Assembly (NCBI RefSeq): GCF_017348835.2
Contig: NZ_CP071375.1
Strand: one strand, 5' to 3'
Length of the DNA stretch: 64,000 nucleotides
Source of the DNA: Escherichia coli
Lineage (GTDB): Bacteria > Pseudomonadota > Gammaproteobacteria > Enterobacterales > Enterobacteriaceae
Shown: positions 3,409 through 27,423 of the stretch, piece by piece
Position numbering within the stretch: the stretch's first letter is position 1
Layout of the letters: every line of letters starts with the position of its first letter
Made by a program: the position numbers and the translations under genes
The notes under the pieces: generated by a model
Told to the model about the DNA's origin: nothing
Database searches by the model: none
The model's input: the letters and a program-made list of their open reading frames with translations, nothing else

Positions 3409-5070
3409 TCAAAATGTTTCCCAGTTTGGATCTTGTTCAGCAATTCGCAGTCGTGGCTGTGCCGGTGGTTGCTCACTGGCAGGACGGGATGGTGTTTGCG
3501 GTTTATTGGTGAGTGGGCTGGCTGCCAGACGAAACGTGGAAACCGCTTGCGTTAAACGACTAGCCTGTTCTTCCAGCGCAGCTGCGGCGGCAGCTGATTC
3601 CTGCACCAGCGATGCGTTCTGTTGCGTGACGCGATCCATTTCCGAAACCGCCAATGCGACTTGATCGATGCCACGGCTCTGTTCATCCGATGCCGATGCA
3701 ATCTCGCCCATAATGTCAGTCACGCGAGTGACAGCATTGACGATATTGTTCATTGTTTCCCCGGCGCTTTCGACCAGCACCGAACCGGTATCAACGCGCG
3801 AGACGGAGTCTTCAATGAGGGCTTTGATCTCTTTTGCCGCCTGGGCGCTACGACTGGCAAGATTGCGCACTTCGCCCGCCACCACGGCAAAACCACGGCC
3901 CTGTTCACCCGCACGCGCGGCTTCAACCGCGGCATTCAGCGCGAGGATATTAGTCTGGAAGGCAATACCGTCGATAACGCTGATAATGTCGGCAATTTTC
4001 TTCGAACTATCGGCGATCTCATGCATCGTTTTCACTACGCCATCCACCACTTTGCCGCCGTGCTGGGCGGTGTCGGAGGCACTTTGCGCCAGTTGCGAGG
4101 CCTGGCGGGCGTTATCGGCGTTTTGCTTCACTGTCGCGGTGAGCTGCTCCATGCTGGCGGCAGTTTCTTCCAGCGCGGATGCCTGCTGTTCAGTACGGGA
4201 GGAAAGATCGGTGTTGCCCGCCGCAATTTCACGGGTACCGGCATAGATGGCATCTGAACCTTCGCGGACATGAGTGACGGTGTCAGTCAAAGAGCGTTGC
4301 ATATGTGAAACGCTCTGCGCCAGGTCGCCCATTTCACTGCGCCCGTCAATGGTCAGGGTATTCGCCAGGTTACCACCGGCGATTTCGCGAATGTGAGCAA
4401 TAATTTTTGCCAGCGGTGTAAGCAACATACGGCGAATGCCGTACCACGCCACCAGCAGAATCAATACCACCACCAGCGCGATAACCGCCAGTTGCCACTG
4501 GGCAAATCGGTAATCATCTGCGTTGTCAGTGACGATATTGCGATACAGTTTTTCACTGCTGAGGGCGTACTGAGCAAACGCTTCGCCCATTGCATTTTGC
4601 ATTCCCTGGGTTGGCTGAGCGAAATAAGCTCCAGTATTGCCATAATCAAGATAATCAATCAGTTCAGTTAACGCTGTGTAATAGTTTTTATATTTTTCAT
4701 CAATATTACGACTGGTAGCGACCATTTCAGGTAACGGTGCCATGCTTTTGAATTTTTTATAATGAGTCGCGGCCTGGGCCAATGTTTTCCTGGCGCTATC
4801 GAGCAATTCAACTTTGGCGTTACTTTGTTGATTGGAGGAATCCATCATCATCCGCACCGCTGAACGACTCAGGTTAATGCGCGTTTGCAGCATTAAATCC
4901 CAGGTTGACGTCAGCTCGCCCTGCTGTTCCCGTAATTGATTGGAAACCACAAAGCTCTTCTGGCTATGGTGAAGGGAAGAAAAAAACAGACTGCCGGAAA
5001 TAAGCTGTAACAGTGCGAATACCCCCAGCACCATTACCAACAGCGTGACTACGCGGATACGGTTAATCAT
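3409..5070 (-). CDS. tar: Methyl-accepting chemotaxis protein II (aspartate/maltose sensor) Tar
   Basis: ORF track 3409..5091 is 5'-extended; known Tar starts [13 protein letters not shown] (553 aa) and ends with the NWETF pentapeptide. Confidence 0.95.
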
Positions 5071-5101: not shown

Positions 5102-5128
5102 TTATCGGCAAGAAGGGGGGAAACTTTA
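5102..5128 (-). promoter_or_regulatory. FliA (sigma-28) class III promoter of tar-tap-cheRBYZ
   Basis: Minus strand reads TAAAGTTT-N11-GCCGATAA, an exact match to the sigma-28 consensus, about 30 bp upstream of the tar start. Confidence 0.85.
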
Positions 5129-5155
5129 TTGCTGATGCCACCCGCCGCGAAATTG

Positions 5156-5186
5156 AAATAAAAAACCCGATGCGCAGATCATCGGG
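5156..5186 (-). terminator. Rho-independent terminator after cheW (end of the motAB-cheAW operon)
   Basis: GC-rich inverted repeat cccgatg...catcggg followed on the minus strand by a T-run. Confidence 0.7.
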
Positions 5187-5214
5187 TTCATTTCAATTGA
5201 GGAAATCGGGAGAA

Positions 5215-5718
5215 TTACGCCACTTCTGACGCCGCGCTATCTAACAGCGCCATCTCTTCGCTGTTCAGCAGTTTTTCGATGTTCACCAGAATCAACATAC
5301 GGTCGCCCAGTGCGCCCAGTCCAGTGAGATATTCTGTTGAAAGCGTCACGGCAAACTCTGGTGCCGGACGAATTTGCTCCGCCGTCAATGAAAGCACGTC
5401 TGAAACGCCGTCAACCACGATGCCGACCACCCGCTGTCCGAGATTCAGGACGATAACTACCGTGTTGTCGTTATAGTCCACATCCACCTGGCTGAACTTA
5501 ATTCGTAAGTCAACAATCGGCACAATAACGCCGCGCAGATTCGTGACGCCTTTGATAAACGCTGGCGTGTTCGCAATCCGTGTTACCTGATCGTAGCCAC
5601 GGATCTCCTGCACTTTCAGGATATCAATACCGTACTCTTCATCACCAAGGGTAAATACCAGAAATTCCTGGCCTGACGGCTCGCTGGCCAGCTTTGTTAC
5701 ATTCGTCATACCGGTCAT
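5215..5718 (-). CDS. cheW: Chemotaxis coupling protein CheW
   Basis: 167-aa ORF matching CheW. Confidence 0.96.
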
Positions 5719-10225: not shown

Positions 10226-10576
10226 TCAGGCCCTTTTCTTGCGCAGCGCTTCTTCAGGCTGATTAACATCATTCAGCAAGCGTGTTGAGAGCATGATGCC
10301 GGTATGAATTTGCTGGAGATCGTCAACGCGGGAATCTTGCGTCAACTGAGTAATCGTCTGGTGGCTGTCAAAACGGAAGTGACAAACCAGCTGATTGGTT
10401 TCTGCCAGCTTAACCATTTGCGGAAGAGTCAGTGCCGCTAATGTTGTCGCCATTTCTTCATTTATGCCGAGACGAAACATAGCGGACGCTTTGTCCTGAA
10501 CAATCAGACGCTGTGCAAGTAGTAAATATGACAAGTTGATGTCATAAATGTGTTTCAGCAACTCGGAGGTATGCAT
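10226..10576 (-). CDS. flhD: Flagellar master regulator subunit FlhD
   Basis: ORF track 10226..10585 (119 aa, [10 protein letters not shown]...); the 116-aa form starts at [12 protein letters not shown]. Either start is possible. Confidence 0.93.
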
Positions 10577-11355
10577 TATTCCCACCCAGAATAACCAACT
10601 TTATTTTTATGCGGTTTCACCGCACCCCGTGATGTCGCCGGGAAGCCCCGGTAAAAAATAATTAGCATTAGAATAGTTGCGATAAGCTGCAATAAGCAGA
10701 GCCACCTTTTTGGTTTAATAAGTCCTTACAAATAGAAGGGGGTCTTTACACTTATCTAAGATTTTTCCTAAATCGACGCAACTGTACTCGTCACTACACG
10801 CACATACAACGGAGGGGGGCTGCGATTTTCAATAATGTGTGATGCAGATCACACAAAACACTCAATTACTTAACATAAATGTATAAGTCATACTTTTGTT
10901 TTGGGTGTATTTCAATCTGTTAAAAAGTTTTTCGCTACGCTAGCAAGCAAAAATGAAACAGGAATAATCGAAATGGGATGTTGCGCACAGTTAAAATAAC
11001 TCACCGTAAATAATCATCTGCTATAAATAATCACTTTCATGCAATACCAGATAAGCTATTTTTAAACAGACACTTACCGCACAACAAACTAATTAAATAC
11101 AAAGAAAGGCAACAATCAACTTAATGTTAATAAAATGTTTTGCATATATTAACCACTTGTTTAATGCGGGGAATCAGTACATTATTTTCTTATAATTACA
11201 GTTGAAATCATATGATTACCGAGAGTGATTGATTAATTGTCTTTACTAATAATCAGACTAATATTTACCTGTTTGACTGAGTTGGGATTGCGTCGTTTCT
11301 CCATTAGGAGTAAAGCTTTAATGTCACCTGAAGTTCACAGAATAAGGAACAGGTT
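10577..11355. promoter_or_regulatory. flhDC promoter and long AT-rich upstream regulatory region, divergent from uspC; no insertion sequence
   Basis: About 770 bp of AT-rich non-coding DNA between the flhD and uspC starts; no transposase ORF and no IS terminal repeats recognised. Confidence 0.75.
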
Positions 11356-19446: not shown

Positions 19447-19477
19447 ACAAAAAAACCTGCCGAAGCAGGTTTTTTTG
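19447..19477 (-). terminator. Rho-independent terminator of azuC (IsrB transcript)
   Basis: A-run, acctgc-cgaa-gcaggt hairpin, T-run; abuts the azuC stop. Confidence 0.8.
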
Positions 19478-19564
19478 TTATCGGAACATATTGCCTGGCG
19501 GTACGTCTTTGAACGTCTTGCAATAGTTATTGAACATACTTTTCAGGATCTTGCGCAGTTTCAT
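19478..19564 (-). CDS. azuC: Small membrane-associated protein AzuC (28 aa; mRNA also known as sRNA IsrB)
   Basis: Manual minus-strand translation gives MKLRKILKSMFNNYCKTFKDVPPGNMFR*. Below the ORF-track size cutoff. Confidence 0.9.
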   Translation of the reverse strand: MKLRKILKSMFNNYCKTFKDVPPGNMFR

Positions 19565-19646
19565 CGCGGCACTCCGACCATTTGTTATACAGGTGTTATT
19601 GTCTTTGCGCTTATAATATGACAACCATCACAAAAATCAATCTTTA

Positions 19647-19662
19647 TGTGATACAAATCACA
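19647..19662. promoter_or_regulatory. Consensus CRP site (TGTGA-N6-TCACA) upstream of azuC
   Basis: tgtgatacaaatcaca is a perfect CRP core motif about 85-100 bp upstream of the azuC start codon. Confidence 0.7.
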
Positions 19663-19826
19663 TAAATACCCCTTTAATGTTATAAAAATGATAATCAAAA
19701 AACAGCCCCCCTATTTCTGACACCTACAGATGGCAAGAAATAGCGCCTGCCAGGCGTCTTTTCCGGCCATTGTCGTAGCGCTGTAACGCGTAAAATACTG
19801 CTTTCTCTTACTCTTCTGGCTGGACC

Positions 19827-20150
19827 ATGAGACTTCTGATTCTGACTCTTTCATTAATAACGCTGGCGGGGTGTACGGTTACTCACCAGGCCCATGTGAG
19901 CGAAGTTGACGCGGCAACAGGTATTGTACGGTTGGTTTATGACCAGGCTTTTTTGCAGCATGCCCATACCGATCGTTATGTCAGTCGCGGGATCGCCGAT
20001 CGCGCATGCCAGCAGGAAGGCTATACCCACGCGATCCCCTTTGGTCAGCCAGTAGGCAACTGTAGCCTTTTTGCGGGTTCCTTATGTTTGAATACGGAAT
20101 TCACTTTGTCATATCAGTGCCATCATTCCGCCTTCCCTGTCTTTCTCTAA
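19827..20150 (+). CDS. yecR: Lipoprotein YecR (flagellar regulon member)
   Basis: 107-aa ORF with a lipoprotein signal (LITLAGC); matches YecR. Confidence 0.9.
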   Translation: MRLLILTLSLITLAGCTVTHQAHVSEVDAATGIVRLVYDQAFLQHAHTDRYVSRGIADRACQQEGYTHAIPFGQPVGNCSLFAGSLCLNTEFTLSYQCHHSAFPVFL

Positions 20151-26965: not shown

Positions 26966-27423
26966 AGGAATATCTCCAGAAATAGGGATAACGCTACTGA
27001 TAGTTAGTCATTCGTATATTAGCGGTTTTTATTGCAACTTTGAAACGTTAAAAATGGTGGGTATTCGATTTTTCTCTCGTTTTTGTCAATTCGATTGTCC
27101 ACAGTTATGGTCACGCCCGTCACCAACGGCTTACCGGATCGTTTCACAGTAAGCCCTGCGACGAAATGTGACAAAAATTACCTTTATTCAGCAAAAATGA
27201 AAATCAGCCCGCTGAATATGTAACATTAATTAACCCGAACAATACGGGCAAAAAACATTCATGATAAAAATATTTATTGGTCATTATATTAACGCATTTA
27301 ATAGCACCGTTGACGATACGCTCAAAAAACAACCACTGCTATTTTTAGCAAAGCTTATGGTATACTCCGCCGCCTTAACATTTTTCACCGCAAATTTTCA
27401 TTGCAACATGACGAGGAAAATAA

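Follow-up and report, generated by a model that had tools for sequence, protein, structure and literature searches.

The azuC/azuR locus in a 64-kb window of an Escherichia coli genome: a known dual-function RNA with two phased CRP-like sites at its promoter

Introduction

AzuCR of Escherichia coli is a dual-function RNA. As an mRNA it encodes AzuC, an amphipathic inner-membrane protein of 28 aa that co-purifies with GlpD and activates it, raising dehydrogenase activity, and as the small RNA AzuR it base-pairs with the cadA and galE mRNAs and represses both (Raina et al. 2022, PMC8915982). Pairing takes place through a part of the coding sequence, and translation and pairing interfere mutually; the RNA binds both Hfq and ProQ, and compensatory mutations support the pairing with galE (PMC8915982). 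Translation of azuC is backed by SPA-tag and ribosome-profiling data (PMC8915982), and in a separate ribosome-profiling study azuC was among the small ORFs most strongly induced under acid stress (PMC10746267). Control has been described at two levels. The small RNA FnrS pairs with AzuCR at a site 25-31 nt ahead of the ORF and so represses translation; in addition, cells grown in glucose contain more AzuC-SPA than cells grown in glycerol, deletion of crp raises the AzuC-SPA level, AzuCR RNA is low without glucose, and the crp effect was attributed to CRP-mediated repression via "predicted CRP binding sites", in the plural (PMC8915982).

Among other systems, SgrS/SgrT of E. coli is likewise a small RNA that both codes for a protein and pairs with mRNAs of carbon metabolism. 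The coding and pairing regions of SgrS are separate, however, whereas pairing in AzuCR takes place inside the CDS and the two functions compete, and there is no sequence relationship between the two RNAs. Spot 42 (spf), which is also dual-function (SpfP), and CyaR resemble AzuCR in being small RNAs with cAMP-CRP-responsive transcription, but their sequences and targets are unrelated to those of AzuCR, the promoter of which carries phased sites at about -48.5 and -18.5 as mapped here.

The present locus lies in a 64,000-nt stretch of an E. coli genome (RefSeq assembly GCF_017348835.2, contig NZ_CP071375.1), referred to below as the window, where an earlier reading made from the letters of the sequence (hereafter the sequence-only reading) had placed an azuC gene too short for the cutoff of the ORF track. 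The locus shares with K-12 AzuCR an identical protein, promoter, 5' UTR, FnrS site and Shine-Dalgarno (SD) sequence and both CRP-like sites. Since azuC/AzuCR is already known and well characterised (in detail in 2022), the locus adds no biological novelty; what can be asked more closely is how its promoter is read.

Results and Discussion

Identity and annotation of the locus

The gene and its transcript occupy the following positions:

19447..19606, minus strand: AzuCR (azuR/IsrB/IS092) transcript, ends transferred from K-12 1988001 and 1987843
19478..19564, minus strand: azuC CDS of 28 codons and a TAA stop; its product is a small amphipathic membrane protein (membrane localisation as published)
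19572..19575, minus strand: Shine-Dalgarno GGAG, 7 nt before the ATG, invariant in four lineages

On re-reading, the 28-codon frame proposed at 19564..19478 on the minus strand was intact to its end, translating to MKLRKILKSMFNNYCKTFKDVPPGNMFR followed by the stop codon TAA. The mechanical ORF list gives the same frame as a 48-aa TTG-started ORF (19624..19478), so that even at its longest the ORF falls below the 60-aa cutoff, in agreement with the sequence-only reading. The 28-codon version is the real one because the TTG at 19624 lies upstream of the transcription start.

Alignment with K-12 MG1655, where two overlapping features are annotated (the azuC CDS b4663, 1987873..1987959, and the ncRNA azuR b4434, 1987843..1988001), showed the encoded peptide to be identical to K-12 AzuC and the CDS to differ from the annotated azuC at one synonymous position. 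The gene order yecJ-azuC-yecR is common to the window and K-12, with ftnA and ftnB as further shared neighbours. In NCBIfam, the peptide also matched NF033642, the equivalog model named "stress response protein AzuC", along the whole profile (positions 1-26 of 26), scoring 75.9 bits (E = 1.3e-21) where the cutoff is 30. When a 601-bp query around the ORF was compared with complete E. coli genomes in RefSeq, azuC was annotated at the matching place in 5419 of 5426, the features beneath the match being azuC, yecR and yecJ. The query region was 100% identical in the pig isolates PE164 and F2_81, and the annotation of PE164 (NZ_CP114128.1) places azuC at exactly window 19478..19564. We therefore consider it nearly certain, with a probability of about 97%, that this is azuC/azuR of E. 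coli, the gene for the dual-function RNA AzuCR. The proposal that the ORF is the known small protein AzuC was thus borne out by the K-12-identical peptide, the synteny, the RefSeq annotation and the equivalog model, as was the statement that its mRNA was first described as the sRNA IsrB, the original names being IS092/IsrB (PMC8915982).

The window differs from K-12 by three bases in the alignment; the promoter is free of them and the protein is unaffected:

AAA -> AAG at Lys5, synonymous, at AzuCR +57 and so not in the part predicted to pair with cadA
one additional A in the A-run of the terminator
TCCG -> TTCG in the terminator loop

These differences would be expected to have no functional effect.

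A Pfam search with the peptide returned no family, and Rfam 15 holds no family for the AzuR RNA, the search giving just sub-threshold, terminator-driven matches to STnc370, rsmX and Thr_leader. Automated pipelines consequently have no Rfam model from which to annotate the RNA function. The PGAP annotation of PE164 (NZ_CP114128.1) contains the azuC CDS and no AzuR ncRNA feature, while the curated K-12 RefSeq record has both.

Transcript, promoter and terminator

The elements that delimit transcription, together with the two CRP-like sites, are:

19647..19662, minus strand: CRP site 1, perfect palindrome TGTGATTTGTATCACA, 10/10 to TGTGA-N6-TCACA; predicted site
19635..19640, minus strand: -35-like hexamer TTGATT, from the promoter scan, a consensus match only; invariant in four lineages
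19617..19632, minus strand: CRP-like site 2, TGTGATGGTTGTCATA, 9/10 with one mismatch, centre -18.5; predicted site
19613..19618, minus strand: -10-like hexamer TATTAT, from the promoter scan, -12..-7 relative to 19606; invariant in four lineages
19449..19476, minus strand: intrinsic terminator A7-CCTGC-TTCG-GCAGG-T7, from the fold and the K-12 3' end

The RefSeq transcription start site (TSS; K-12 1988001, window 19606) puts the ATG at +43 and makes azuR 159 nt long. The published account gives the same TSS with the CDS at +40..+126 and an RNA of 164 nt (PMC8915982), which leaves an inconsistency between the two of 3 nt in the position of the ATG and 5 nt in length. Accordingly, the 5' end is given here as 19606 with an uncertainty of about 3 nt, the alternative TSS being 19603 (K-12 1987998). 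For this allele, coordinate transfer predicts a 160-nt RNA, and the promoter and 5' UTR are 100% identical to those of K-12. The promoter scan returned TTGATT-16-TATTAT at 19640..19613. A sigma-70-type promoter (TTGATT / TATTAT) would thus drive a transcript of ~160 nt that runs from about 19606 to the terminator and ends at 19447.

The hairpin AAAAAAACCTGC-TTCG-GCAGGTTTTTTT (19476..19449) had a folding energy of -21.2 kcal/mol (z = -6.8), and 0 of 200 shuffles were equally stable. Its core is a 5-bp stem (4 G-C, 1 A-U) with an A-U extension, a 4-nt loop and a T7 tract; the annotated 3' end of the K-12 RNA maps to window 19447, 2 nt past the T-run, and the range of 19447..19477 that the sequence-only reading had assigned to a strong terminator was therefore exact. 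A simple terminator scan did not list the hairpin at 19476..19449. Because A and T runs flank the stem, the terminator is symmetric and potentially bidirectional, and on this structure the A7/T7-flanked hairpin could serve termination in both directions.

Conservation of the locus was examined in an alignment of four sequences, namely the window and three divergent Escherichia loci: L009, L023 (E. whittamii) and L035 (Escherichia sp. E1V33). These loci came from a scan of species-representative genomes with back-translated MFNNYCK, among the returns of which there was no typical E. coli representative. Besides the 3 Escherichia loci, the scan gave 30 matches in unrelated, mostly AT-rich genomes, which look like chance. 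Across the four lineages 93% of the terminator columns were invariant, and all four CRP half-sites, the -35 and -10 hexamers and the SD were without variation, with both N6 spacers varying; in the flanks, beyond site 1 on one side and the terminator on the other, just 56-57% of positions were invariant. The L009 sequence (NZ_JAATUR010000018.1) is labelled Escherichia coli, and its azuC region is much nearer to those of E. whittamii and E1V33 than to that of the window or K-12; the strain is probably a member of a cryptic Escherichia lineage.

Two CRP-like sites and the regulators that may read them

The perfect TGTGA-N6-TCACA motif that the sequence-only reading had reported at 19647..19662 was confirmed. 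This motif occurs 2 times in the 64-kb window against an expectation of 0.09, and at least 2 occurrences were seen in 0 of 100 shuffles. Relaxing the search to one mismatch, as is needed for site 2, yielded 4 motifs against 1.88 expected, a count not above chance. Sites 1 and 2 are nevertheless the two best CRP-core matches in the azuC-yecR intergenic region, and for this reason we took them to be the published sites, of which the papers mention two, predicted or annotated, without printed coordinates. The original evidence for CRP is reportedly that of Hemm et al. 2010.

The centre of site 1 lies at -48.5 from the RefSeq TSS (-51.5 if the TSS is 19603) and the site abuts the -35 hexamer; site 2 overlaps the -10 hexamer and the spacer, and the two centres are 30 bp apart. 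Neither -48.5 nor -18.5 is known as a standard position for activation by CRP, and sites that sit on a -10 element are placed for repression. The positions of the sites therefore fit the published repression, and the single upstream CRP site noted before becomes part of a two-site repressor arrangement. In the absence of glucose, cAMP-CRP would repress azuCR transcription, most likely through the two in-phase sites 30 bp apart, at which bound CRP would block RNA polymerase from the core promoter; we infer such promoter occlusion from the geometry of the two sites. No direct binding assay of CRP or FNR at these sites was found in the literature searched. The sequence-only account was right as far as it went, but it omitted the repression by CRP, site 2, the dual function of the RNA and its targeting by FnrS, and the assignment of the palindrome to FNR.

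That assignment was made recently, with FNR motif hits at K-12 1988039-1988055 and 1988042-1988058 (Ekdahl et al., 2025, PMC12266141), both of which map to window 19644..19663, i.e., to the palindrome of CRP site 1. NarP and PhoP sites were also given upstream (PMC12266141) and correspond to window 19665..19681 and 19651..19668, respectively. Mutating each site relieved repression, as did knocking out fnr; earlier ChIP-seq evidence of FNR binding near isrB was cited, and two previously annotated CRP sites were noted, with IPOD-HR occupancy changes mainly upstream of them (PMC12266141). Moreover, AzuC levels fall anaerobically (PMC8915982). These data, together with an 8/10 match to TTGAT-N4-ATCAA, raise the possibility that the palindrome is primarily or additionally an FNR operator, at which FNR with NarP and PhoP would repress azuCR anaerobically, CRP being secondary or acting mainly via the site at -18.5. 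We regard this as a serious possibility but on balance an unlikely one. Read as an FNR site (GTGAT-N4-ATCAC), the palindrome departs from the FNR core at two positions, the outer end of each half-site, where the discriminator T is absent, and it matches the CRP core at 10/10 positions. It is this symmetric G/T position that distinguishes CRP sites (GTGA) from FNR sites (TTGA). Any mutation in the palindrome, furthermore, would destroy the CRP site too, and the assays were performed in stationary-phase glucose medium, where cAMP-CRP would be expected to be active. Overlapping-site mutations were acknowledged as a confound by the authors in general terms (PMC12266141).

On the strength of the 10/10 against the 8/10 match and of the discriminator position, CRP was kept as the primary reading of the palindrome. 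It is also conceivable, although we put it forward only tentatively and think it rather doubtful, that CRP and FNR, which are paralogous regulators, both use the palindrome as a common operator. If so, carbon and oxygen signals would be joined on one 16-bp element, in concert with site 2 at the -10 hexamer and with the FnrS site of the 5' UTR. Which of CRP, FNR or both uses the palindrome at -48.5 is a narrow question concerning a single promoter.

A further possibility is that the palindrome is an activator site for the divergent gene yecR, instead of or besides serving repression of azuCR. It does lie in the 262-bp intergenic region shared by azuC and yecR, 172 bp ahead of the yecR start codon (position 19827, plus strand), and CRP sites in divergent regions often act both ways. 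However, conservation is tight on the side of the azuCR promoter and poor between the palindrome and yecR, where 56% of positions are invariant and an 11-bp indel occurs; the two phased sites on the azuCR -35 and -10 elements point to azuCR as the target, and neither a yecR TSS nor CRP dependence of yecR was found in the literature searched. A role in yecR activation is thus improbable, and repression of azuCR by CRP remains the favoured function of the two sites.

Coding capacity of azuC

Variable sites in the CDS were overwhelmingly silent: 10 were synonymous and one, K8R, was a conservative replacement, against a random expectation of 19% synonymous (P = 5e-7). Considered with the invariant half-sites and promoter hexamers, this pattern would be expected for a translated ORF and real protein-binding sites, as far as four sequences can indicate. 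K8R, the sole amino-acid variant seen, is carried by the L009 locus. Residues 2-21 had a computed helical hydrophobic moment of 0.605, which was matched by 12 of 2000 shuffles, and the computed net charge of the AzuC peptide is +6. In its role as an mRNA, AzuCR would be translated from the GGAG-N7-ATG start into the 28-aa amphipathic AzuC.

That the short ORF arose by chance within an RNA lacking any coding function might be supposed from the first cataloguing of the RNA as the non-coding sRNA IS092/IsrB and from a peptide without a Pfam family. This view has next to no chance of being correct given the predominance of synonymous change, the conserved SD and start codon, the match to the curated AzuC equivalog model, and the published work in which the tagged protein was detected, ribosome profiling supported translation, and AzuC was localised to the membrane and co-purified with GlpD; the detection of the protein has already refuted a purely non-coding sRNA. 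A 48-aa TTG-started ORF lies antisense to azuC at window 19475..19621 on the plus strand.

Base pairing with cadA, galE and FnrS

Two stretches of AzuCR are relevant to pairing:

19589..19595, minus strand: FnrS pairing site CACCUGU, AzuCR +12..+18, complementary to FnrS nt 1-7
19493..19522, minus strand: predicted cadA-pairing region, AzuCR +85..+114, inside the CDS, from the windowed duplex scan

Duplexes were sought with a windowed scan, whole-molecule RNAduplex having given meaningless molecule-long interactions. The best duplex with cadA joined AzuCR +85..+114 to cadA -16..+14 (dG = -26.9 kcal/mol) and was equalled in 1 of 30 shuffles; it covers the RBS and start codon of cadA, and the alleles of the window and K-12 do not differ in the pairing region. 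With galE, the best duplex involved AzuCR +89..+114 and galE +16..+44 at a dG of -20.5, and 16 of 30 shuffles were as good. The optimum for FnrS in the windowed scan was not above chance either, as is expected of short seed pairings, and likewise for galE.

At the published location, complementarity to FnrS is seen base by base. FnrS nt 1-7 (GCAGGUG, from K-12) and AzuCR +12..+18 form 7 bp, the last of them a G.U pair, and the site falls exactly 25-31 nt upstream of the ATG, as published. CACCTG is invariant among the aligned lineages, and the last base of the site is C in the other Escherichia, which turns the G.U pair into G-C.

In the proposed mechanism, the stretch of AzuR within the coding sequence would pair with the cadA and galE mRNAs and lead to their repression, and translation and base pairing of AzuCR would compete. 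Under anaerobiosis, FnrS would pair with +12..+18 and repress AzuC translation. A candidate pairing of the SD with codons 27-28, seen in the full-length fold, in which the first 28 nt are unpaired, was rejected: the change CGA -> AGA in the other Escherichia lineages breaks the pair G32-C124 and is uncompensated.

Small genes and other features of the window

The statement that genes of fewer than 60 aa are present in the window and invisible to the ORF track also held, as two more such genes are annotated in addition to azuC:

27107..27223, plus strand: 38-aa hypothetical protein WP_001302039.1, annotated CDS, < 60 aa
27261..27437, plus strand: yecU, 58 aa, annotated CDS, < 60 aa

In this respect azuC is a clean positive control: a 60-aa cutoff hides real, functional genes, and reading from the sequence alone recovered azuC correctly.

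The only other perfect TGTGA-N6-TCACA motif in the window, TGTGATGCAGATCACA at 10838..10853, is in the upstream region of flhDC, 262-277 bp before the flhD start codon (flhD CDS 10226..10576, minus strand). The flhDC promoter has its CRP activator site at -71.5 and its leader measures about 198 nt, an arrangement that 10838..10853 would fit exactly. A one-mismatch CRP-like motif, TGTGACGCACGTCACC at 56869..56884, belongs to the class whose count is not above chance; it is located ~80-95 bp upstream of the DsrA gene (dsrA sRNA, 56703..56789, minus strand; Rfam 102.5 bits). Finally, the Rfam C0465 RNA was found at 5118..5195 on the plus strand (111.6 bits), between the tar CDS (3409..5070, minus strand) and the cheW CDS (5215..5718, minus strand) and on the opposite strand to both.
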